DNA of 64,000 nucleotides from Promethearchaeota archaeon (lineage in GTDB: Archaea > Asgardarchaeota > Lokiarchaeia > Sigyniarchaeales > SOKP01). Location of the stretch: positions 256,001 through 320,000 of the forward strand of contig JAHPZE010000002.1 in the NCBI GenBank assembly GCA_019058365.1, written 5' to 3'. The notes beneath the pieces are model-generated. The model was not told the origin of the DNA. It made no database searches and saw only the letters and a list, made by a program, of their open reading frames with translations. The number at the start of each line of letters is the position of its first letter. The first letter of the stretch is position 1. Of this stretch, positions 49,615 through 60,494 are shown piece by piece. The position numbers and the translations under genes were made by a program.

Positions 49615-50526
49615 TTATACTAAATGATGAAATTCTTCAGCATTAATAATGACTTCTTTTAAAATTTGAAAGTTTTTATCCTCTCCATGAATTAAAAATA
49701 TCTTATTTTTGATTGGAATTGCTGCTTCTTTTCCGATTAAAACCCATTCTTCTTTAATTAAATTTCTAACTATTGAACCTTCTTTAAATTTAATATAAAC
49801 TAATGCTCCTAAAAAACCATTAAATTTAGTTTCTTCAAGTTTCACATCTTCAAAGTCGGGAATTTCATTATTTTTACCTTCATTTTTAATCTCATATTCA
49901 GTTTTACTCAATAGCAAATTTAAATTAGCTTGAATTAAATTAATATCATTCTCTATATTTCTTTTATAATTGTACTCGAAAATGATAAGACCACATTCCT
50001 GTGTAAATGTTCCTTTATGACCTATCAGTTCATAATCATATACTATTCGACCTAAAGATTCTGAATGTTCGATAACTTCTGATTTTACTTTCCATCTCTT
50101 TGAAATAAGAGGTTCTATGTATTTTTGAGAACCAGGATGGATGGTATCAATCGTTAACTCTTTTTTTTCTTGATATAGTTTATCTAGAGTATCGCCAATA
50201 TACAACCTCTTTTGTTTTAGGTTCTCAATCTTTCCTTCCAGATTAACTAATATTTCATTAAAAATTTCCAAGGGGGGTTTAGCTATAAATTTCATCCTTC
50301 GAGGTTGTTTTCTTATTTCTAAAACCTCAATCCAACCTTTATCACTCAGTTTTTCTAATATTCCATATAATGTTGTTCGTGCAATTTGAAGATTATATTT
50401 TAATCTTCCTACCATATCGCCATTGTGCCCTCTTTCAACTAATGCTAAATAGACTATAGCTTCGTCAGCAGTTAAACCAAAATCTTGTAAATCTTGAATA
50501 TATATTTCTTTTTCCTTATCTTTCAT
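49615..50526 (-). CDS. TrmB-like HTH regulator; paralog of the C-terminal part of the gene at 54346
   Basis: LQDFGLTADEAIVYLAL...ARTTLYGILEKLSDKGWI HTH; shared CGLIIFEYN C-terminal domain. Confidence 0.8.
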   Translation of the reverse strand: MKDKEKEIYIQDLQDFGLTADEAIVYLALVERGHNGDMVGRLKYNLQIARTTLYGILEKLSDKGWIEVLEIRKQPRRMKFIAKPPLEIFNEILVNLEGKIENLKQKRLYIGDTLDKLYQEKKELTIDTIHPGSQKYIEPLISKRWKVKSEVIEHSESLGRIVYDYELIGHKGTFTQECGLIIFEYNYKRNIENDINLIQANLNLLLSKTEYEIKNEGKNNEIPDFEDVKLEETKFNGFLGALVYIKFKEGSIVRNLIKEEWVLIGKEAAIPIKNKIFLIHGEDKNFQILKEVIINAEEFHHLV

Positions 50527-50580
50527 ACTTTTTCATAAATTATATAATAATTAATTAACATTTTTTATTATATAAATATG

Positions 50581-50600
50581 TTGTCGAGAAAGGACGACAA
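50581..50600. promoter_or_regulatory. Palindromic operator candidate TTGTCG-N8-CGACAA
   Basis: Perfect 6-bp arms in the divergent promoter between the TrmB-like gene and the methyltransferase; same core as the site at 57089. Confidence 0.6.
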
Positions 50601-50664
50601 TAAGAATTTATTTAAATAGAATTCTTATTTTTGTTTATTTAGATAATTTAAAAATTGAAATAAG

Positions 50665-51366
50665 ATGATAATTGTGAGTAAAAGTAAAAAAATATGTGAA
50701 AGAATCCCTGAGGGTGAAGCAATATTAGATCAGATTGACTTCACAACAGAAGAATATAGTGAAGCATGCAGAAAAATGGAAGGAGAATATCGGCGTTTGA
50801 TAAATTTCATATTTAAAAAACTTGATATTAAAGAAAATTCAAAAATTTTAGAGATCGGGCCAGGACCAGGATGGATTGGAATTATGATGGCAAAACAAGA
50901 TCCTTCACTGACAATAATTGGAATTGAACTTTCTAAAGATATGATGCGTGTAGCTAATAAAAACATAAGAAAGGAAGATATTGATGATCGAATTTCTTAT
51001 ATTCACGGAAATGCTGAAAATATGTATCAATTTTTAGATAATACATTCGATGTTGTTTTTGGAAATGGTACCCTTCATCATTGGGAAAATCCTATAAATG
51101 TATTTAATGAGATTTTTAGAGTTCTGAAACCAGATGGTGTTTTTTGTATTTCTGATGGTCGACGAGATATAAGATTAGGAGCAAAAGTAATTTTTCATAC
51201 AATGAAATGGTTTATCCCTAAATTTATGAGAATTGGTTGGAAAACTTCAATAAATGCGGGATACACACCCGAAGAATTAACAGAAATATTAGATCAATCA
51301 AATCTAAAAGAAAATTATGAATTAAAAGCTGATCTTTTTGATATATTAGTTTATAATAAAACTTAA
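50665..51366 (+). CDS. Class I SAM-dependent methyltransferase
   Basis: ILEIGPGPG and RVLKPDG motifs. Confidence 0.9.
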   Translation: MIIVSKSKKICERIPEGEAILDQIDFTTEEYSEACRKMEGEYRRLINFIFKKLDIKENSKILEIGPGPGWIGIMMAKQDPSLTIIGIELSKDMMRVANKNIRKEDIDDRISYIHGNAENMYQFLDNTFDVVFGNGTLHHWENPINVFNEIFRVLKPDGVFCISDGRRDIRLGAKVIFHTMKWFIPKFMRIGWKTSINAGYTPEELTEILDQSNLKENYELKADLFDILVYNKT

Positions 51367-51386
51367 TATAAGAAAGGGAAGAATTA

Positions 51387-51854
51387 ATGCCACAAATTGC
51401 AAAGGGAGGAAAATATTTATTTGGATGGTCAAGAGTAGGAAATCAAGGTAAAATTAACATTCCTCCCGAAGCTTTTAATGAGTATAATTTAAAACTGGAT
51501 AAATATGCCATCTTATTTTCAGGTAGTAAAACTTCAGGTGGATTTGGATTAAGTTCTGTGAGGATTTTAAAAAATTCCATCATGAAAGAATTAATAGACA
51601 AATATACTTCACTAGCCAATTATAAGATACCTGAGGGAGAGGTTATCGAATTTAAAAATAAAAAATACTGTTGGGTAGCAATCCAAAAAGATAGAAGTAT
51701 AAATCTATCAGAAAAGACTTTAAATGCGTTTGGAATTAAGAAAAACGATAATTTGCTCTCCGGAAGAGGTAGCCATTTAGCTATCGGATTTATCGCAAAA
51801 GGACCAATATTTAAAGAAGCAAAAAAATATCCTGAAATTGAATTTTTTGAATGA
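51387..51854 (+). CDS. Duplicated AbrB-like (swapped-hairpin) protein
   Basis: VGNQGKINIPPEAFNEYNL and a second repeat INLSEKTLNAFGIKKND. Confidence 0.6.
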   Translation: MPQIAKGGKYLFGWSRVGNQGKINIPPEAFNEYNLKLDKYAILFSGSKTSGGFGLSSVRILKNSIMKELIDKYTSLANYKIPEGEVIEFKNKKYCWVAIQKDRSINLSEKTLNAFGIKKNDNLLSGRGSHLAIGFIAKGPIFKEAKKYPEIEFFE

Positions 51855-51886
51855 AGATAGTCGTTATATTTAAATAGTATGATTCG

Positions 51887-51924
51887 TATGATCATATTAA
51901 TATGATCATACCTATATGATCATA
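51887..51924. repeat. Three perfect TATGATCATA palindromes with a 14-bp period; putative operator array
   Basis: Copies at 51887, 51901 and 51915, with degenerate copies at 51878 and 51929, directly upstream of the AbrB gene. Confidence 0.8.
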
Positions 51925-51943
51925 TCAATATGAATCTTAAAAG

Positions 51944-52402
51944 GTGATTAAAATAACTGAATTTCCTGGTAAAAAAGGAAAATATTTTTTTGGCTCAGTA
52001 AAGGTTGGGGAACGCGGTCAAATTGTTATTCCCCTTAAAGCTAGAGAAGTTTTTGGAATTGAAGCTAAAGATGAAGTATATATTGCTGGAGAATTAAATA
52101 AAGGATTAGGTTTAGCTAAAAGTTTGGATATCGATATAAAAGAGTTAGAAAAACATGAACATTATTTTGGTACTGCTAAAGTTGGTGAGCGAGGACAGAT
52201 TGTTATTCCACAAGAAGCTCGAGAAATCTTTAAAATAAACTCTGGAGATTTAATCCTAATATTTGGAGATATTAAAAAAGGAATTGCCTTTACGAAAGCA
52301 ACAAAATTGAAAAATTTTGCTATAAAGCTATTTCAATCATTCTTAGGAGGCTTCGAGGATATTCAGGAAAACAATAGAGGTGATTTTAATGAAGAAGAAT
52401 AA
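51944..52402 (+). CDS. AbrB/MazE-family regulator with two tandem domains
   Basis: KVGERGQIVIP motif occurs twice. Confidence 0.9.
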   Translation: MIKITEFPGKKGKYFFGSVKVGERGQIVIPLKAREVFGIEAKDEVYIAGELNKGLGLAKSLDIDIKELEKHEHYFGTAKVGERGQIVIPQEAREIFKINSGDLILIFGDIKKGIAFTKATKLKNFAIKLFQSFLGGFEDIQENNRGDFNEEE

Positions 52403-52922
52403 AAATCAATCAAATATTGATTTTAGATTTATGTCATTTTTCTTTAAAATTCGTGATAAAATTCACCCTCCTATAGAAAAAATTATAAAAGCCAACATTA
52501 AACAAGGAGATATAGTTTTAGATTATGGTTGCGGATCAGGAAGTTATTCAATAGCTGCTGTTGAGATAGTAGGATCAAATGGGAAAATTTTTGCTGCAGA
52601 TATTCATCCATTAGCATTGGAGAAAGTCAGAAAAAAAGCTGAAAAAAAAGGTTGTACTAATATTGAAACAATTCAAACCGATTGTGCTACTGGATTAGAT
52701 AATGAATATATTGATAAAGTAATTTGTTTTGATGTATTTCATGACATCCCTCATAAAAATGATCTATTAAAAGAATTTCATCGAGTTTTAAAATCAAAAT
52801 CAATACTTTCCTTTGATGATCATCATATGAATGAAGATGAGATAATAGATTGCATCACTTCCAAAGGGCTCTTTAAATTAGTTGAAAAGAAGGATCAACA
52901 ATATAATTTTATTAAAATCTAG
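52389..52922 (+). CDS. Class I SAM-dependent methyltransferase
   Basis: VLDYGCGSG and EFHRVLK motifs. Confidence 0.88.
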   Translation: MKKNKNQSNIDFRFMSFFFKIRDKIHPPIEKIIKANIKQGDIVLDYGCGSGSYSIAAVEIVGSNGKIFAADIHPLALEKVRKKAEKKGCTNIETIQTDCATGLDNEYIDKVICFDVFHDIPHKNDLLKEFHRVLKSKSILSFDDHHMNEDEIIDCITSKGLFKLVEKKDQQYNFIKI

Positions 52923-53705
52923 GTGGAAACAAAAATGGAAGATAAACCTAAATATGGATGGTATGTGAAGGATCTAATTATTGGATTCAATATCATAGGA
53001 TTAATAGGATTATCTGCTTTTATTTACGGATTTTTAATAGACGGTATAGCACAAATATTTCTAATAATTTCAGGATTAGCTGTTGTTTTGGTATTTTTAT
53101 GGCCAGGTATCGGAATGATAATACTGAATCTATATTTATTACGAAAAATACCTAAAATAGATTTAATTGCTAGAATGAAAGCATTAGATGAAATAAGTAA
53201 TCCACAGATTTTAGATGTTGGATGTGGAACTGGAAGAACAGCAATTAAGATTGCTAAGGCATTAAAAAATGGAGGACATTTATTTGGAATTGATATTTAT
53301 TCGAAAATGGCAATTTCAGGAAACAGTTTAGATACTGTACAAAATAATGCTATAGTTGAAAAAGTGGAAGAAAGAACTACGTTTAAAAATGGTTCTGCTA
53401 TAGACATCCCTTTTGAAAACAATAGTTTCGATATTGTTAATGTTTCTTCAGTACTCCATGAAATACATGATCCAAACGGGCAAGATAAAGCAATGAAAGA
53501 GCTTTATCGAGTTTTAAAACCGGGTGGATATCTTTACTTGAGTGAATGGAACCGAACGTCATGGCAATTAATAGCATTTAGTGGGTTGTGTTGCTTTGTT
53601 TTTAAGCATAAGGATTACTGGGAGAAATTACTCAAAGAAAATAAATTTAAGAATATAATATATGAGAACATCACAGGTTTTGGAATTTTTACCGTAAGAA
53701 AATAA
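52923..53705 (+). CDS. Membrane-anchored class I SAM-dependent methyltransferase
   Basis: Two N-terminal TMs; ILDVGCGTG and RVLKPGG motifs. Confidence 0.88.
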   Translation: METKMEDKPKYGWYVKDLIIGFNIIGLIGLSAFIYGFLIDGIAQIFLIISGLAVVLVFLWPGIGMIILNLYLLRKIPKIDLIARMKALDEISNPQILDVGCGTGRTAIKIAKALKNGGHLFGIDIYSKMAISGNSLDTVQNNAIVEKVEERTTFKNGSAIDIPFENNSFDIVNVSSVLHEIHDPNGQDKAMKELYRVLKPGGYLYLSEWNRTSWQLIAFSGLCCFVFKHKDYWEKLLKENKFKNIIYENITGFGIFTVRK

Positions 53706-53712
53706 ATTTTTT

Positions 53713-54255
53713 TTATTCTATTTTTTTATTTTTAAAAATAATACCTTCTTCAATCCAACTCCAATGTAACATTGGTCGTCTAAATTCTCCTTCAAATTCA
53801 AAACTAGATTTTTTTATCTGTTCTTGGACTTTATTTAATTGAATTCCATAAGAACCTATATGAGTAGCATGATAAGATAAAAATCCGGATTTATCTTTTA
53901 AAACTCGATGTATTTCATTTAATAATTTGATTCTATCTTCTTTATCGAGTAAATGATACACATCATACATTAACACAACATCTATAAAATTGTTCTTCAA
54001 TGGAATCGATATTTTTTTCAAAGTCTTTATGATTTCAATATTCTTAATATTTTGAGACTTAATTTTATTAGATAATTCCTCTAAATGATCTTCATCGTAA
54101 TCAAGAGCATAAATTTTACCAGTATTTCCTATAATTCGCGAAGCAATTATTGAATATACTCCTGTTCCACATCCAAAATCTAAGATTTTTTGTCCACTTT
54201 TAATTCCAAATTCTCTAAGTATGCTTTCTCCCTTTGAATTTAACCATTCTTCCAT
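53713..54255 (-). CDS. Class I SAM-dependent methyltransferase
   Basis: ILDFGCGTG and EIHRVLK motifs. Confidence 0.88.
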   Translation of the reverse strand: MEEWLNSKGESILREFGIKSGQKILDFGCGTGVYSIIASRIIGNTGKIYALDYDEDHLEELSNKIKSQNIKNIEIIKTLKKISIPLKNNFIDVVLMYDVYHLLDKEDRIKLLNEIHRVLKDKSGFLSYHATHIGSYGIQLNKVQEQIKKSSFEFEGEFRRPMLHWSWIEEGIIFKNKKIE

Positions 54256-54345
54256 GTTTATTTCTACTTTTTATTATTTATTAAAATAAAGGATATGAAA
54301 AATTTCTATAATAAGAAAGAATTGTGAAAAACATAAAAATAGCCT

Positions 54346-55596
54346 TTAAAGTTTTAAGATAATACTCAATAAAATTGGAAATTGTTCTTCAGAACCCCAA
54401 ACGACATAGATTTTATTTTGAATAGGAACAGCTACATGCCTAGCTGCTACAATCCAATCCAATCCAACATTATTTCCCGTCTCAGTTCCTTCTTTAAATT
54501 TAAAATACATTGTCATTCCTAAATAATCTTGAATTTTTATATCCTCAATTTTAATATCTTCAAGATCAAGAATCGTAAATTCTTTTATATCAAGATCGGG
54601 TTGTATTGGTTCTCTCATTTTTTCTGAAGAAAGTTGTAATGCTGCTCTGATAATAACTTCTTCCTTTACTTTTTTATTATATTCAAAAATAATAAGACCA
54701 CAATCTTTTTCCTTTCCCGTTATTCCAAGGGTGTTAAAATCAAACGATTTTTTGCTGTATAATTGAAAATCTTTCTTTATTTCTGAGATATCCATCCATC
54801 CATTCTCAAGCGTCTCACCCATTATATACCGAAAACTCTTTAAAATTTTTAATTCCTCTTCTTTTTGTTGAATTCTTTCATCAAATATGCTTGTTAAGGG
54901 TCTTGCTACAAAATATTGTGCACTTTTTGGTAATAATGGCAATTTTATTATCCATTCTTTGCTAATTAAACGATCAATAATACGATAGATAGTTGTTCTT
55001 TTAATGGATAAATCTTCATCTAACTCACCTACTTTTGCCCCTTTATTCCCCTTTCTTAGCAAAGCTAAATAAACTTTGGCCTCTTCAATACTCAACCCAA
55101 ATTTAAGTAATCCAAGCTCTTGCAAATTATTTGTATCATCAAGAAGTATTCTTGGAGTTGCCCATTTTAATTCTTCTACTTTTCCTAACTGGGCATCTAA
55201 ATCCATATAAGGCTTTTTTGAACTTAAATTGTGTAATGTTCGAGATGCTTCCATCATTCCGAGTCGCATTATTCCATCTGGAGCAATTTTACAAATAATC
55301 TTCCTCTCTTCATCTTTAAAACCTAAAATTCTTCCTTTTTGAATAGGATCTATCCCAATCAATCTTTCAGGAGTACACTGTATTATTACGTATTTAATAT
55401 CTGAAATTGTAAGATAAGTATGCTTCATTAATTTCCAAACCGAGATAATTTCATCAATATCTTCGCTAATATTCCAATTCTCTGTTGAATATTCTATTTC
55501 TCTATCTCCTTTAATTATTGCGGCTGAAATTGTTTTTGATTCAGATTCTATGAGTTTATTTAGAGCATATTTTACCTTTTCCATATTTAGCTTCAT
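54346..55596 (-). CDS. Profilin-like domain fused to a TrmB-like HTH regulator
   Basis: The N-terminal ~125 aa carry Asgard-profilin hallmarks (AAII..D..I.YSTENWNIS, IKYVIIQCTPERLIG...KGRILG). These are followed by FGLSIEEAKVYLAL...RTTIYRIIDRLISKEWI and the CGLIIFEYN domain. Confidence 0.72.
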   Translation of the reverse strand: MKLNMEKVKYALNKLIESESKTISAAIIKGDREIEYSTENWNISEDIDEIISVWKLMKHTYLTISDIKYVIIQCTPERLIGIDPIQKGRILGFKDEERKIICKIAPDGIMRLGMMEASRTLHNLSSKKPYMDLDAQLGKVEELKWATPRILLDDTNNLQELGLLKFGLSIEEAKVYLALLRKGNKGAKVGELDEDLSIKRTTIYRIIDRLISKEWIIKLPLLPKSAQYFVARPLTSIFDERIQQKEEELKILKSFRYIMGETLENGWMDISEIKKDFQLYSKKSFDFNTLGITGKEKDCGLIIFEYNKKVKEEVIIRAALQLSSEKMREPIQPDLDIKEFTILDLEDIKIEDIKIQDYLGMTMYFKFKEGTETGNNVGLDWIVAARHVAVPIQNKIYVVWGSEEQFPILLSIILKL

Positions 55597-55643
55597 CTTC
55601 TCTTTTTATATTAAGTTAAAAAAAAAAAATATTTTACAATTAG

Positions 55644-55850
55644 TTATTTTTCTCCAAATTTTTTTTTTATTTCATCTAATACCTTTTTAAAATAGCTTTT
55701 TTCTTTAGATTCCTGAATTTCTATAAAATAGTCAGGCACGATTAATTTCTTAGATTCTCTTTTTATCTCTACGTCTATCCAAATTATCCCATCATCCAAC
55801 ACGATACAAGGTATACCTTCCAAAAGTTTTATTCGTGTCATTTTCATCAC
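55644..55850 (-). CDS. Small hypothetical protein downstream of actin
   Basis: 68-aa ORF starting 27 bp after the actin stop on the same strand. Confidence 0.55.
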   Translation of the reverse strand: MMKMTRIKLLEGIPCIVLDDGIIWIDVEIKRESKKLIVPDYFIEIQESKEKSYFKKVLDEIKKKFGEK

Positions 55851-55877
55851 TTTTAATTAATTTTTAATTGAAAGAGT

Positions 55878-57023
55878 TTAAAAACATCGATGGATAACTT
55901 GAGGCCCCATCTCCTTGTATTCTCTTCGAGTAATCCACATTCTATGAAATGTTTTTAAGGAACTTAAGATAGATCCTCCTATCCACACAGAATACATTCT
56001 TTCTGGAGGAGCGATTATCTTTACATCTATAGATTCAGCAACTTGTTCCTTTATTTCTCGAGTTAGACGTTCTTTAATTCCCGGAAACATTGTAGAACCA
56101 CCTGAAAGGACAATATTACTATAAAGATCTCTTCGTAAATCTACATCGCATTCAGAAATTGCTCCTACTACTACATCATCTAAAGGAGCTAATTCCTTAC
56201 CAACCACAGAAGGATTAAATAAGCACTCTGGAGCTAAGAATCTTTCAATCCCTATTGTAATTGTTTCACCATCTGGAAGCATGAAATTCTTTGCCATACC
56301 AGCTACTTTATTTGAAAGTAAAATCTCTTTTTCAGGTTCAATAGCAACATAGCAAAGTTTTTCTTTTATTTCTCTTACAATCTGTTTTTCTGCAGAAGTA
56401 TAAAATGAGTATCCATTTTGCCTTAATAATCTTTGTAAGTACGTTGTAACATCCCTTCCAGCAAGATCAATTCGCTCTATTGCATGGCTTAATGCAAATC
56501 CCTCAAAAATTGGTACAATATGTGCTACTCCATCCCCTATATCTACTACACATCCAGTAGTTCGACCAGAAGCGTAAAGTGATAAGACTGCTTGTGTTGC
56601 GATATAAAGAGCAGGAACATTGAATGTCTCGAACATTATTTCGGCCATTTTTTCTCTATTCGATCTTGGATTTAAAGGAGCTTCTGTTAATAACACTGGA
56701 AATTCTGAAGGATCGATTCTTAGATCAGTATAGAATGTATAATGATATATTCTTTCCATTGCTGGCCAATCCTCAACGACTCCATGTTCAATAGGAAACT
56801 GTAAATTCATTATTCCTTTTAATTCCATAGCTTCCTCACCAATATACCACTCACGGCTATAATCCTTTACATCAGGCATAATATTTCCATATTTTGGTTT
56901 ACCGATAACAGTAGGGAATACTGAACGAGGTTGATCTTCTCCTCCAAATCCATTTTTTGATATCCCTGTCCCATTATCTATAACAATTGCTCTATTTTTT
57001 CTAAAATCCCCGTTGACTGAAAT
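55878..57023 (-). CDS. Actin (Lokiactin-type), about 381 aa, probable ATT start
   Basis: The frame extends 48 codons upstream of the track ATG and includes IVIDNGTGISKNGFGGEDQPRSVFPTVIG. LLTEAPLNP, LYASGRTTG, LSGGSTMFPG and APPERMYSVWIGGSILSSL are also present. GAGGTGG precedes the ATT, and an in-frame stop lies at 57042-57044. Confidence 0.93.
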   Translation of the reverse strand: MSVNGDFRKNRAIVIDNGTGISKNGFGGEDQPRSVFPTVIGKPKYGNIMPDVKDYSREWYIGEEAMELKGIMNLQFPIEHGVVEDWPAMERIYHYTFYTDLRIDPSEFPVLLTEAPLNPRSNREKMAEIMFETFNVPALYIATQAVLSLYASGRTTGCVVDIGDGVAHIVPIFEGFALSHAIERIDLAGRDVTTYLQRLLRQNGYSFYTSAEKQIVREIKEKLCYVAIEPEKEILLSNKVAGMAKNFMLPDGETITIGIERFLAPECLFNPSVVGKELAPLDDVVVGAISECDVDLRRDLYSNIVLSGGSTMFPGIKERLTREIKEQVAESIDVKIIAPPERMYSVWIGGSILSSLKTFHRMWITRREYKEMGPQVIHRCF

Positions 57024-57088
57024 TTTAAAACCACCTCTTTTTTATTTTATTGTTTTATAGATAGAATGAAAATCATAATATTTAAAAC

Positions 57089-57108
57089 TTGTCACATAAT
57101 GGTGACAA
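57089..57108. promoter_or_regulatory. Palindromic operator candidate TTGTCAC-N6-GTGACAA upstream of actin
   Basis: Perfect 7-bp arms, 20 bp long like the site at 50581, next to a TATA-like box. Confidence 0.6.
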
Positions 57109-57187
57109 TTATGTTATGCAACTTTAACAACAATCAAGAAATCAAAAATAATTATTTTAAAATTATTATAAAGCAAAGAAGAGTATA

Positions 57188-57616
57188 ATGACGCGTTTAA
57201 CTAGTACTGAAATAAGTTGTCTTCACTGTCAAAATTCTTTTCGAGTTAATTGGGAAGCATCAATTAATACTTGGTTAAATCCAGAATTAATCCAAAAATT
57301 ACTTGATGACAAATATTACTATAAATGTCCGAATTGTAAGAATCAAATACATTTAGTTACAAAGATATTAATTAATTGTCCTAAAGGTATGTTTTGGATA
57401 TCAAATGATGAAGATTTAGAAATCAAAAAAAGAATTTTAAAAGAATATAATGTTTTAAATGAAGAGGGTAAGATTTTAACTCCTATCATAGGCATAGATC
57501 GTCCTGAGGTAAATCACACTAGTTTAATTTCAGAGATAGGTGATGAAATTCAAAAATTATATGATGAATTTTTAAAAAAAGACACAAATCAAATAAATGA
57601 AAAGAAAAATGAATAA
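57188..57616 (+). CDS. CpXC-type zinc-binding protein
   Basis: ISCLHCQ...SIN...NPEL...YKCPNC pattern. Confidence 0.75.
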   Translation: MTRLTSTEISCLHCQNSFRVNWEASINTWLNPELIQKLLDDKYYYKCPNCKNQIHLVTKILINCPKGMFWISNDEDLEIKKRILKEYNVLNEEGKILTPIIGIDRPEVNHTSLISEIGDEIQKLYDEFLKKDTNQINEKKNE

Positions 57617-57638: not shown

Positions 57639-60494
57639 TTATTCCAATTTTTTTTGAGCGAAACTAATATTTTTCTTAATAGAAGTTGCTAAGGGTGAAT
57701 CATTAAACTCGATTTCCTCTAAGAAATTCATAGCAATATTGAATTTATCTAGAGCTTCTTGGTATTTTCCTTGTTTAAAATATATTAACCCGATTCTATT
57801 GTTATATTTAGATTTTTTTGTTTTTTGTATTTTTTCTTCTAATTCGTCAGAAATCTTTAATGCTTTTTCATATAATTTTATCGCTTCAACTTGATTCCCT
57901 AATTTGTTATTCATATTAGCAATATTACTCAAATCAGTGGCAGTTTCAGCTAAATCACCAAGAATCTCATGAACCTTCATTAATTTATCAAAATATTCCA
58001 AAGCTGCTTGAAATTCTTTTTGTTTTTCATATGTTTTTGAAAGACTATTAAGGAGTATAACTTGCCATTCAAGATTCTCTAATTTTTCACTAATTTCTAA
58101 TGCTTCTTTCCATTTTTCAATAGCAATTAAAGGATTTCCAATGGTATTATTAATTAGTCCAATTGTATTAAGACATAAAGCTTTATCAGGAAGGTTATTA
58201 TATTTTGTATATATTTCAAGAGCCTTTTCGTATGAACCTAATGCTTCATCATAATTTTCTAAGCCAGTATATAGCTGTCCAATCGCATTTAAAGTAGTGG
58301 CCTTTTCTAGGTGATTTTCTATTTTTTCAGTAATTTCTAATGAATTTTTATAATATTCTAGTGCTTTCGTATGATCTCCTTGAACTCTATAACTATTACC
58401 TATATTATTCATAATAATAGAAATTGATAATTGATTTCCCAATTGCTCAAATATTTCTGTAGCTTCTTTATAATACTCTATCGCATCAGAAAAGTTTTCT
58501 TGCCTTTCAAAAACTGTACCAATGTTGTTTAATGATACAGCAATGTCGGGTAGATTTTTTAACTTTTTATTTAATTCAAGTCCCTTTTTATACCAGTTTA
58601 GAGCTTCTGTGTACATTTCTTGATCAAAATATACACCACCAATATTGCAATACACTGCAGCTTTATCAGCCTCTATCTTTAGTTTTTCTTTAATTTCAAG
58701 AGATTGATGATATATTTCTAAAGATTTTTCGAACTTTTTGAGATGTTGATAAACTAATGCCAAATTATTTAGACTAATAGCCTTACTTGTCAAATTCCCA
58801 ACTCTTTCAGTTAATTCAAGCGCTTTTTCAAACCATTTTAAAGCTTCATAGTCATCTCCGAGATCAAAATGTATTAAACCTATATTGTTGTATGATACTG
58901 CTATTCCTGGAAAGTTAGCTAATTGTTCATCAATTGCCAGAGAATCAAGGTAATATTTTAGAGCTATGTTAATATCACCTTTGTCATAATAGAGGCTTCC
59001 AATATCGTTTAAGCATTTTGATTTTGCTGAAAGATCTCCAACTTTTTCAGTTAATTTTAGAGCAGTTTGATATTTTTTTAGTGACTCATCAAATTCTCCT
59101 AAATTTTGAAGAGTATTCCCCATATTAATTAAATATATACCTTTCCTTTGATCATCCTGCAAATTTTCTGCAATTTTCAAAGCATGTTCATAGCTTTTTA
59201 AGGCTTCATCATATTTACCCTGTTCTTCATAAATCTTTCCAATATTTGCATAGCTCCCTGGCTTTTCTGACGCTAAACCTAGCTCTTCATCAATTTGAAT
59301 AGATTCATGATATTTTTCTAAAGCTTCTTCGTAATTACTTTGATTATAATTGATAAATCCAATGTTACTTAATATCACTGATTTGTTTTCTAAATCGCCT
59401 GTATTAGATGAAATCTCAATCATTTCTTTCGCACATCTCATTGCATCATCATACATACCTAAATCAAGATATATCTTATGAGGTATAAAGTATTTCGTAA
59501 ATTTACTCGGTTTGTCAATATTAATTTTTAGCCATTCTAACGGATTCACTTCAGAATCATTATGATTAATAGGAGGTTTAGTTTTCATCATTTCTTTTAT
59601 TAATCGAGATGTATTTACATCAACTCTATATATATGTTCAGCAAAATCCATTCGCTTAATATCTGCAAGAATTTGATTTACTTTGCTTATAGTATCATAA
59701 TTTTTCAATGTCTCTTCGTCAATTTCAAAAATGTGAGCTTTATTTGCATCATCTTTAATATAATTTATCCAGATAACGTTTTTAATGTTTTTAAGTGCTT
59801 TTATAGTTGGAACGACATCAAAATCGTCACTTCCAGAATAACCCATAATTATAAATGAACGGTTTTTTGAGATATTTTCGAATAGATCCCGTTTAAATAG
59901 CTCGACTTGAAAAACATTCACCCCTTCTTTATTTGAGCCAAATGCTTGAATTGTAGCAACCAATGTATTACTAGTATCTTCACCTTTTATTAGATTTTTC
60001 TTTGAACCATGGATTTTATAAAGAGTTTTCAATCCTCTTGCATAAAGATTTTCAGGGTCATTGTATTTTTCAAAATTCTTTTGAGTTATAATTATCTTTA
60101 ATTCCTCTTTAGGAATCCCAATCTGGAGTAATGCATGTTCTATTAAAAAATCAAAATTAGTTGTCATTACAAAATTGCCGTTATTTATCATCTCAGCGAG
60201 AAAAAAGTGTTGAATATTTGGATTTTCACATTCTCCATAATAATCAATAATTTTCAAATCATCATCTATATTATCTCGCACTATTTCAACTAATGCTTCA
60301 AATCTTAGATTCTCTAATCGAGATATTTTTTCTACCTCCGATTCAACACAGGTATATTGAATGATTGCATCCATCATTGGACGTCCAGCTGGTAATCTTG
60401 AAGGAGCATCTACAGAACACCCCGCACCAACAAGAAATGTAAGTTTTTGGTCTTTCCCAATTAGTTCATTTATTGAGAAATTTACTTCTTCCAT
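57639..60494 (-). CDS. SIR2-like (SIR2_2) domain fused to a long TPR array
   Basis: FLVGAGCS, TTNFD, KIHGS and GYSGSDDFD motifs, followed by many ~40-aa TPR repeats (LNNIG...Y..AL). Confidence 0.88.
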   Translation of the reverse strand: MEEVNFSINELIGKDQKLTFLVGAGCSVDAPSRLPAGRPMMDAIIQYTCVESEVEKISRLENLRFEALVEIVRDNIDDDLKIIDYYGECENPNIQHFFLAEMINNGNFVMTTNFDFLIEHALLQIGIPKEELKIIITQKNFEKYNDPENLYARGLKTLYKIHGSKKNLIKGEDTSNTLVATIQAFGSNKEGVNVFQVELFKRDLFENISKNRSFIIMGYSGSDDFDVVPTIKALKNIKNVIWINYIKDDANKAHIFEIDEETLKNYDTISKVNQILADIKRMDFAEHIYRVDVNTSRLIKEMMKTKPPINHNDSEVNPLEWLKINIDKPSKFTKYFIPHKIYLDLGMYDDAMRCAKEMIEISSNTGDLENKSVILSNIGFINYNQSNYEEALEKYHESIQIDEELGLASEKPGSYANIGKIYEEQGKYDEALKSYEHALKIAENLQDDQRKGIYLINMGNTLQNLGEFDESLKKYQTALKLTEKVGDLSAKSKCLNDIGSLYYDKGDINIALKYYLDSLAIDEQLANFPGIAVSYNNIGLIHFDLGDDYEALKWFEKALELTERVGNLTSKAISLNNLALVYQHLKKFEKSLEIYHQSLEIKEKLKIEADKAAVYCNIGGVYFDQEMYTEALNWYKKGLELNKKLKNLPDIAVSLNNIGTVFERQENFSDAIEYYKEATEIFEQLGNQLSISIIMNNIGNSYRVQGDHTKALEYYKNSLEITEKIENHLEKATTLNAIGQLYTGLENYDEALGSYEKALEIYTKYNNLPDKALCLNTIGLINNTIGNPLIAIEKWKEALEISEKLENLEWQVILLNSLSKTYEKQKEFQAALEYFDKLMKVHEILGDLAETATDLSNIANMNNKLGNQVEAIKLYEKALKISDELEEKIQKTKKSKYNNRIGLIYFKQGKYQEALDKFNIAMNFLEEIEFNDSPLATSIKKNISFAQKKLE

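Follow-up and report, generated by a model that had tools for sequence, protein, structure and literature searches.

Genes and features of the locus

The window, the whole stretch of DNA analysed here, comprises 64,000 nt of the Promethearchaeota archaeon assembly GCA_019058365.1 (contig JAHPZE010000002.1, positions 256,001-320,000 of the forward strand), whose host GTDB places in Asgardarchaeota; Lokiarchaeia; Sigyniarchaeales; SOKP01. It contains two TrmB-like regulators, a second actin gene and two palindromes, arranged as follows.

49615..50526, minus strand: TrmB1, a regulator that has a winged helix-turn-helix (wHTH) and shares the C-terminal domain of the fusion regulator but lacks profilin; the two form sister clades
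50569..50576, minus strand: trmB1 TATA box, 5 nt from the putative operator; BRE overlapped, a geometry of autorepression
50582..50599: putative TrmB1 operator core, TGTCG-N8-CGACA, in the divergent trmB1/methyltransferase promoter
50611..50618, plus strand: methyltransferase-side TATA box, separated from the putative operator by 11 nt; BRE free, an activator geometry
50665..51366, plus strand: MT1, a SAM-dependent methyltransferase that TrmB1 likely targets; it is the divergent partner in all 8 loci of the TrmB1 clade
51387..54255: variable cluster (a 155-aa ORF, a double-AbrB protein and three more methyltransferases); a frequent neighbour
54346..55596, minus strand: fusion regulator of profilin-TrmB type, a single ORF of 416 aa that spans profilin, wHTH and C-terminal domain
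55644..55850, minus strand: small ORF of 65-68 aa separating actin-2 from the regulator gene; many loci have it, though not all
55878..57023, minus strand: actin-2, second Lokiactin paralog (PF00022), 381 aa, ATT start
57032..57037, minus strand: Shine-Dalgarno sequence GAGGTG, 8 nt before the ATT start
57079..57086, minus strand: actin-2 TATA box TTTAAATA, 3 nt from O1
57090..57107: O1, the putative actin-2 operator, TGTCAC-N6-GTGACA, one copy per genome in 16 of 16 genomes with an intact fusion
57112..57129: O2, a putative and degenerate repeat of the operator, lying two helical turns (22 bp) upstream of O1 as read on the minus strand
57188..57616, plus strand: CpXC zinc-ribbon gene, divergent from actin-2; a neighbour in some loci only and thus not a fixed target

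A second actin and a fusion regulator

Actin-2 matches PF00022 with an E-value of 7e-129, retains intact nucleotide-binding and phosphate-loop motifs, and shares 84% identity with the main Lokiactin, which lies on contig C39. The C39 copy is the near-invariant Lokiactin present in all genomes, while the window copy belongs to a separate and patchy group; it forms its own branch (100/100 within the genus; SH-aLRT 99 for 42 rows), and by sequence actin-2 is its own clade. It also evolves faster, with a mean identity within the genus of 90% versus 99.6% for the main actin. Thirteen of the 23 fixed differences between the two fall in subdomain 2, D-loop included, and the profilin-facing surface is almost unchanged. 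The ATT start aligns with ATG or TTG starts in relatives. A -1 frameshift from an upstream GTG into actin-2 was rejected on this alignment and on a stop in that frame in genome G007.

The fusion regulator consists of a profilin domain (about residues 5-128), a wHTH (154-232), a coiled-coil helix (234-259) and a C-terminal alpha/beta domain (about 297-416). This three-domain architecture is kept in more than 100 homologs, so the first domain is not a stand-alone profilin. The PF01978 wHTH is found in both regulators of the locus (40.9 and 41.7 bits; gathering cut-off 25.6), and TrmBL2 (5BPD) aligns over residues 155-261, coiled coil included (Z 11.0, rmsd 3.4). The C-terminal domain has no Pfam match and no Foldseek match at E<=0.001; its model (pLDDT 92) weakly resembles Mog1/PsbP folds (Z 8.5 at best, with an rmsd of 3.6 over 114 aligned residues), and the TrmB sugar-binding fold is not among the structural matches listed.

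The predicted structure of the first domain is clearly that of a profilin: it matches a Loki profilin by sequence (phmmer E 1.5e-7) and profilins by structure (Foldseek E 1.4e-8; Z 18.9, rmsd 2.1 over 118 residues), and the domain is kept across four genera. Roadblock folds also score a Z of about 12 against it. When modelled together with actin-2, the profilin domain docks at the canonical barbed-end site with a score of 0.65 against 0.00 for the best control; the runs share at least 87% of their contacts, the partner has a pLDDT of at least 80, and the mark applied is reached by 58 of 80 solved and 2 of 110 mismatched pairs. This pass may nevertheless be memorised from the solved Loki and Odin profilin-actin structures (5YEE, 5ZZB, 5ZZA). 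The predicted actin interface shows no greater conservation than the remainder of the domain (0.53 vs 0.60, p 0.17), and profilin is the least conserved domain of the fusion (0.58, versus 0.73 for the wHTH; 0.70 for the C-terminal domain). An LCM methyltransferase that has no actin neighbour carries a fused profilin domain of similar kind, and the domain may be a general module.

Actin-2 and the fusion gene travel together. All 41 actin-2-type matches in the order sit on the contig of a fusion gene, an actin lies directly upstream of the fusion gene in 29 of 30 loci of three other genera, and overall 45 of 46 loci have the fusion gene behind an actin. In G099 the fusion is present and the actin absent. 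The operator, actin-2 and the regulator are physically linked, however, so that such co-occurrence partly reflects inheritance of a cassette, and related genomes are not independent. We infer that actin-2, the small ORF (no match in Pfam or the Atlas) and the regulator are co-transcribed. In most loci a T-tract precedes the regulator gene, and it may separate this gene from the actin transcript.

Two conserved palindromes

The palindromes were first noticed in a sequence-only reading of this DNA, which proposed TTGTC-N10-GACAA as the shared site of both TrmB-like regulators. Both 20-mers are present as it described, at 50581-50600 and 57089-57108, and each adjoins a TATA-like box for a minus-strand gene (50569-50576 and 57079-57086, 5 and 3 nt from the respective 18-bp cores). 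The window has no further match; shuffled sequence gives a mean of 0.05 exact matches, and none of 100 shuffles reaches two. A post-hoc null that counts any 5-bp-arm palindrome pair of equal arm and spacer within 7 kb yields about five pairs per 64 kb; if both members must adjoin a TATA-like box, the window pair and one repeat on contig C36 are all that the genome contains. The genome-wide enrichment envisaged by that reading is absent, with 3 exact copies of the 20-mer against 1.9 expected and 0-4 copies for spacers other than N10. The third copy, on contig C30, was dismissed as a regulon member.

The exact 18-mer of O1 occurs as a single copy in each of the 16 genomes of the genus whose profilin-TrmB fusion gene is intact and in 1 of the 38 others (G059). 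The G059 copy sits between genes in an unrelated setting, where neither an actin nor a TrmB gene lies within 1.5 kb, which fits chance; reversed controls gave no match. Within the window genome, a single one-mismatch copy on contig C45 lies inside a gene and was dismissed. The arms of O1 are fixed across genomes and its spacer is variable. O1 stands 3 nt from the TATA box in 33 loci and 4 nt in 6, a gap that puts the operator arm on two BRE adenines that are both kept in 39 of 39 promoters; the TATA-side end of O1 thus overlaps the predicted position of the BRE. Out of sample, an arm followed by 3-4 nt and a TATA box recurs in 24 of the 26 promoters with available DNA from three other genera (as the whole site or its TATA-side arm). 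The motif is absent from two distant loci (G149 and G153), and none of 29 main-actin promoters carries the O1 motif. The short arm-plus-TATA pattern is unspecific, occurring in 70 of 154 genomes, many without a fusion, and only the full palindrome is specific. A 27-copy IS-like repeat in G149 carries the same arm and TATA string. Upstream of O1, the half-site letters of O2 recur at -22 (C 0.77, A 0.72) and from -40 to -36, and near-perfect second copies of the operator are found in G069, G143, G108 and G151. Neither O2 nor the TATA box on the methyltransferase side (50611-50618) had been described in the sequence-only reading.

The TrmB1 site has its own record of conservation. TGTC-N10-GACA is kept in all 8 genomes of the TrmB1 clade (47-100% identity); its gap to the trmB1 TATA box is 5 nt in 5 of 5 close orthologs, and its gap to the methyltransferase TATA box is exactly 11 nt in 8 of 8 loci. 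This site tracks the clade of the sister regulator and persists where the actin cassette is lost: G005 retains it although actin-2 and most of the fusion are gone, and G042 retains it without an intact fusion regulator. Conversely, no TrmB1-clade gene was found in 11 of the 16 genus genomes that carry the actin site. Neither operator has a copy in the variable cluster at 51387..54255. The outer TGTC-N10-GACA frame is common to both operators and the inner arm positions differ, being fixed within each lineage; the A/T versus G/C difference at position 6, read earlier as covariation within one motif, is real, but what it marks is a fixed distinction between two operators.

Real and conserved as both palindromes are, they do not define one regulon. 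On the comparative sequence evidence, conservation across four genera rules out a chance origin, and both sites, which are conserved in orthologous promoters, are very probably operators of the TrmB-like family, as had been proposed; the part of that proposal that gave way is the single operator shared by both regulators. The regulon of actin, regulators and methyltransferases that it implied is not supported, since the two sites are distributed independently, each follows one regulator, and the genome has no further copies. Some cross-binding by the two sister proteins is conceivable. More distant family members have related palindromes in their own promoters, with an N11 spacer in outgroup clades, and an altered recognition helix (RTNIY) accompanies an altered operator arm. 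The recognition helices of TrmB1 and the fusion regulator are similar.

Proposed mechanism and alternatives

As the best overall explanation, and with moderate confidence, we suggest that each palindrome is the cognate operator of a different one of the two sister regulators, both TrmB-like wHTH proteins; the pairing of protein and site is proposed with good confidence. The common outer frame would be a legacy of descent. A profilin-TrmB dimer would bind TGTCAC-N6-GTGACA and the weaker copy 22 bp upstream, in the promoter of the regulator's own cassette of actin-2, small ORF and regulator. Because O1 ends on the BRE, its occupancy would most likely block TFB and repress the cassette. TrmB1 would occupy TGTCG-N8-CGACA between its own gene and the methyltransferase, from that one site repressing its own promoter across the 5 nt gap and activating the methyltransferase promoter across the 11 nt gap. 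The geometry favours repression of actin, through the BRE overlap, and activation of the methyltransferase, and we propose this sign of regulation with moderate confidence. Activation of the minus-strand genes, which the earlier reading had suggested, is doubtful: their sites overlap the BRE position, and the activator-like spacing of 11 nt belongs to the plus-strand methyltransferase side.

The N-terminal profilin domain would read a signal, most likely monomeric actin, that alters DNA binding and so sets actin-2 output. That actin is the ligand is plausible but tentative, and more tentative still is the full one-component feedback in which the free actin pool, read by the profilin domain, switches the regulator at the promoter of a variant actin whose D-loop is altered. 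Our literature search on Asgard profilins in connection with TrmB, HTH, fusions or MRTF found no description of such a system, subscription journals being mostly outside its coverage.

Profilin is related to the roadblock/longin sensor folds, and the domain could sense a lipid, a proline-rich partner or a small molecule, or the C-terminal domain could take the signal as in TrmB1, leaving the operators as proposed and actin-2 as the inducible output of an unrelated cue. The lack of extra conservation on the actin face, the roadblock matches, the methyltransferase fusion and the good conservation of a C-terminal domain that TrmB1 has without any profilin are all consistent with such a cue. We nonetheless think it the less likely case, because the sole family member to have gained a profilin sits behind actin almost without exception, has retained the domain across four genera and is modelled with actin at the canonical site. 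About equally unlikely is activation of actin-2 by the fusion protein, which would recruit TFB or TBP from tandem sites, in the style of TFB-RF1 or TrmBL1. The sites do lie upstream of TATA, as a tandem array on one helical face, where archaeal activators bind relative to BRE/TATA (PMC5937170, PMC4706686); yet the 3-4 nt gap lays an arm on the invariant BRE adenines, and the same family uses 11 nt on its target side and 5 nt on its own.

A shared operator serving one local regulon, with both regulators or heterodimers on both sites co-regulating actin, regulators and methyltransferases, would account for the identical outer 5-bp arms and 20-bp span, the similar recognition helices of two sister clades and the adjacency of the TrmB1 unit and the actin cassette in G000, G046, G008 and G111, and cross-regulation between TrmB and TrmBL1 is known (PMC4706686). 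Lineage-fixed inner arms, unequal TATA spacings, the lack of other genome copies and the genomes that keep one site without the other regulator make this improbable. That the palindromes are recombination sites, mobile-element ends or chance is largely refuted and very improbable indeed: the cassette is patchily distributed and the IS-like repeat of G149 has the arm and TATA string, but spacers differ between sites and genomes whereas crossover cores must match, the TATA distance is fixed, there is one copy per genome across four genera, and the segment has no recombinase or transposase gene.

Comparison with known systems

The closest parallel is with TrmBL1/Tgr and Pyrococcus TrmB, which share the PF01978 wHTH, the coiled-coil helix and a palindromic box with very similar arms, the Thermococcales glycolytic motif (TGM) bound by TrmBL1/Tgr being TATCAC-N5-GTGATA (PMC4158304). 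There too, the position of the box relative to BRE/TATA sets repression or activation, TrmB repressing where its site overlaps BRE/TATA and activating from upstream sites (PMC4706686), and the regulator controls itself, as is predicted here. The present system differs from TrmBL1/Tgr in its N6 spacer, its one site per genome versus a regulon of at least 30 genes, its N-terminal profilin, its actin target and the lack of a detected sugar-binding domain. TFB-RF1 (PF1088) of Pyrococcus likewise uses a small palindrome just upstream of BRE/TATA and has very few targets (PMC5937170); its motif is a different one, TCTG-N5-CAGA, and by analogy it is likely the model for the 11-nt methyltransferase side.

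The profilin domain resembles Asgard profilins (Loki profilin-1 and -2 and Odin, 5YED, 5YEE, 5ZZB, 5ZZA; Thor, 7PBH) in sequence (E 1.5e-7), fold (Z 17.6-18.9) and predicted barbed-end site, but it is fused to a DNA-binding protein and evolves faster, and its actin binding is a prediction. Actin-2 has the near-unchanged nucleotide-binding motifs and profilin-facing surface of Lokiactin, the conserved main Asgard actin (PMC12993045), and departs from it in being a second copy with a differing D-loop, an ATT start and its own operator. Work on Asgard actin regulation has so far dealt with protein-level regulators only, profilins and gelsolins (PMC12993045). The locus offers a candidate regulator with its putative operator and target, and the sister protein, which lacks profilin and has an operator to itself, provides an internal control; all are testable without culturing the organism, as the proteins can be expressed for EMSA and actin-binding assays. 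If the signal is not actin, the locus would still provide a second Lokiactin under regulation and a well-defined pair of operator and regulator from Asgard archaea; if actin does alter DNA binding, this would be the first prokaryotic case of a cytoskeleton feeding back on transcription. In eukaryotes, MRTF-SRF couples a G-actin-binding module to transcription of actin genes. The likeness is one of logic only: RPEL and MADS domains were absent in the Pfam scan, and a single polypeptide acting in a cell with no nucleus would have arrived at this logic by convergence.

Results

The 20-mer TTGTC-N10-GACAA, which the sequence-only reading had noticed at 50581 and 57089 and taken for one operator uniting actin, two TrmB-like regulators and a methyltransferase cluster, was verified in the window sequence and exceeds local chance (0/100 shuffles). 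Under a post-hoc null, palindrome pairs with the same arms often arise, at about 5 per 64 kb; only the window pair and one repeat have a TATA-like box beside both members. A genome scan recovered 3 copies against 1.9 expected, showing no enrichment and therefore no global regulon. The observation stands and its interpretation survives in part: we consider the two sites best explained, with fair probability, as separate cognate operators of two sister regulators. The region, within the window on contig C34 (256001-320000), is laid out as follows.

49615-50526, minus: trmB1, profilin-less sister regulator, at the left end of the region
50582-50599: TrmB1 site
50665-51366, plus: methyltransferase MT1, divergent from trmB1, in the methyltransferase/AbrB cluster that lies between trmB1 and the fusion gene
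51944-52402: double-AbrB protein within that cluster
54346-55596, minus: TrmB-like gene of 416 aa (the profilin-TrmB fusion), right of the cluster
between the fusion gene and actin-2: small ORF
55878-57023, minus: actin-2, second Lokiactin paralog, right of the small ORF
57090-57107: O1, the actin-2 operator
right of actin-2 and divergent from it: CpXC gene
57639-60494: 951-aa repeat protein adjoining the CpXC gene, in which visual inspection suggests a SIR2-like N-terminal region

Orthologous promoters narrow the actin-2 site to TGTCAC-N6-GTGACA, in which the arms are constant and the spacer varies. The full-length, 416-aa fusion gene occurs in 16/54 genomes of the genus, with remnants in 2 more, and each of those 16 holds a single copy of the exact 18-mer; one further genus genome has it in an unrelated context, and the reversed 18-mer gave 0 matches in the genus genomes. 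Across the order, 47/154 genomes carry the fusion gene, all within one family and spread over four of its genera; three of these genera were left out of motif derivation and served as an out-of-sample test. In these three, actin lies immediately upstream of the fusion in 29/30 loci, the TATA-side arm stands 3-4 nt before the TATA box in 24/26 promoters with sequence available, and the full palindrome is present in 17 of the same 26; neither arm nor palindrome was found in main-actin promoters (0/29). Conservation in orthologous promoters is thus borne out for the actin-2 site (16/16 genomes and 24/26 out-of-sample promoters), and genome-wide enrichment is not. Additional half-sites repeat 11 or 22 bp upstream of the actin-2 operator across promoters, a spacing that suggests cooperative binding in an array along a single face of the helix; the window member of this array would be O2, a degenerate second copy at 57112-57129.

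GTGACA/TGTCAC half-sites also flank the TATA box of another divergent pair, encoding a 338-aa regulator-like protein and a 207-aa product (L181:767-2720 on contig C18 of the source genome, G000, and locus L184 in genome G053), which suggests that regulators of the lineage often use such half-sites as their box. Genome G115 carries two actin-2/fusion cassettes (L159 and L158) differing in recognition helices (RTTIY, RTHIY) and promoter arrays. At contig ends of genome G149 (L177-L179), a repeat that combines a GC hairpin with the arm-plus-TATA string occurs 27 times; it looks like an IS200/IS605-type left end and has no relation to the cassette.

The TrmB1 site accompanies a different set of genes, those of the TrmB1 clade. 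Every genome that encodes a TrmB1-clade protein (8/8; 47-100% identity) has a TGTC-N10-GACA palindrome separating the clade gene from a divergent methyltransferase, and the gap from palindrome to methyltransferase TATA is invariably 11 nt (8/8). On the other side, the gap to the TATA of the regulator gene itself is 5 nt in the five close TrmB1 orthologs. Genome G005 (100% complete) has kept the TrmB1 site although actin-2 and the greater part of the fusion gene are gone; in G042 a TrmB1-clade gene is present together with its site, and no fusion was found; and 11/16 actin-site genomes, several of them incomplete, gave no match to a TrmB1-clade protein. These independent distributions argue for two cognate operators in place of one shared operator and one regulon. 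TrmB1 and the fusion form sister clades in a midpoint-rooted tree with long branches. Because the more distant TrmB-like proteins have related palindromes whose centre is 11 nt long, and the arms differ in a clade with an RTNIY helix, the outer arms common to both operators are best explained as inherited.

Residues 5-128 of the fusion match solved Asgard profilins in sequence (E 1.5e-7) and in fold (Foldseek E 1.4e-8; Z 18.9, rmsd 2.1, 118 residues). A TrmB wHTH, a coiled coil and a C-terminal alpha/beta domain follow, the last common to TrmB1, confidently modelled (pLDDT 92) and with weak Mog1/PsbP-like matches only (Z 8.5). Both regulators have a wHTH by the criteria of the TrmB family; the sugar-binding domain of that family was looked for in them and not found. 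The predicted complex of the profilin domain with actin-2 scored 0.65 (best control 0.00), passing a mark that 58/80 solved pairs and 2/110 mismatched pairs attain, with at least 87% of contacts shared among runs and partner pLDDT of at least 80. The predicted interface, actin 173-180, 293-296 and 358-381, corresponds to the canonical profilin site. This pass may be memorised, because like complexes have already been solved, and the predicted interface residues show no excess conservation over the rest of the profilin domain (0.53 vs 0.60, p 0.17). The actin face is almost identical in actin-2 and main actin, so the profilin domain could probably not tell them apart.

A second profilin fusion (L141:1877-3184, source-genome contig C16) joins a profilin-like domain to a leucine carboxyl methyltransferase (PF04072, E 1.5e-33); 14 genomes in the family have it nearly complete, and no actin gene lies close by. 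It is conceivable as an actin-directed carboxyl methyltransferase, because profilin binds beside the actin C-terminus. Stand-alone profilin-like proteins of 211 and 231 aa, with C-terminal extensions, are encoded at L140:2062-2697 and L142:1443-2138; the L140 protein has a post-profilin linker motif in common with both fusions and may be their source.

The source genome has six actin-family genes, which together with the names attached to homologs (Promethearchaeota) mark it as a Lokiarchaeia-type Asgard genome. The main Lokiactin is on contig C39 and is 84% identical to actin-2. Cassette actins fall on one side of a branch (100/100 with 14 rows; SH-aLRT 99 with 42 rows), and the midpoint-rooted tree allows a single origin, short of proof. 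Mean identity within the genus is 90% for cassette actins vs 99.6% for main actin, and all actin-2-type matches in the order (41/41) lie on a contig bearing the fusion gene. Fixed differences from main actin number 23; residues 38-76 hold 13 of them and the D-loop 7. Because residues 38-76 vary among actins generally, altered filament contacts in actin-2 are a hint rather than proved. Actin-2 starts with ATT at 57023, a strong Shine-Dalgarno, GAGGTG, lying 8 nt before it (the two together spanning 57021-57037, minus); all 16 loci of the genus use ATT, and relatives from other genera have ATG or TTG at the aligned position. A gene call from the first ATG would shorten the protein by 48 residues and remove its first phosphate loop.

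Many actin-2 promoters (L064, L094, L098, L102, L103, L158, L160-L165) have a TATA-to-start leader of 160-190 nt in which blocks of sequence are shared; in the window the leader is some 55 nt. The long form may contain a regulatory RNA element that this lineage has lost. Locus L065:3900-4350 of G005 shows a clean deletion of actin-2, the operator and the first 300 fusion codons, and G053 has a similar remnant.

Discussion

The TrmB-like proteins are the predicted binders mainly on the family-wide palindrome pattern and the resemblance of these operators to the TrmBL1/Tgr motif TATCAC-N5-GTGATA (PMC4158304); co-occurrence of operator and regulator is by itself weak evidence, because the cassette parts are linked. 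BRE adenines occur at -34/-33 and TATA at about -26/-27 (PMC4158304), which puts the adenines 3-4 nt ahead of the box. In actin-2 promoters these positions are the arm's last A and the next base, an A in 39/39, so that a bound dimer would be expected to clash with TFB, as TrmB does at the malE promoter (PMC4706686), and from this we infer autorepression of the actin-2 cassette. The sequence-only reading had noted that a position upstream of TATA would fit activation, and sites upstream of the BRE do activate (PMC4706686; PMC5937170). This fits the methyltransferase side, at 11 nt; with gaps of 3-5 nt at actin-2 and trmB1, activation of actin-2 by the fusion is less probable, though still a serious competitor to repression.

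In the autorepression model, the fusion dimer on O1 would collide with TFB and hold down its own cassette, and whatever ligand the profilin domain binds, with G-actin the simplest candidate, would relieve or tune that repression; TrmB1 would repress its own gene and activate the methyltransferase from one site. Actin-sensing transcriptional feedback through the profilin domain is a serious possibility that we hold tentatively. Most orthologous loci have a T-tract ahead of the fusion gene; in the window it is some 12 T long and follows the small ORF (55597-55640, minus). It is a candidate terminator that may attenuate read-through into the regulator.

This analysis separates the two operators and adds their 11-nt vs 3-5-nt geometry, the tandem array, an out-of-sample promoter test and, with its caveats, a model of the profilin/actin-2 complex. 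Within limited literature coverage, we found no paper on a profilin-TrmB/actin cassette. As operators, these sites would follow the usual pattern of TrmB-family boxes; the new element is a true profilin domain coupled to a TrmB-like regulator on an actin promoter.
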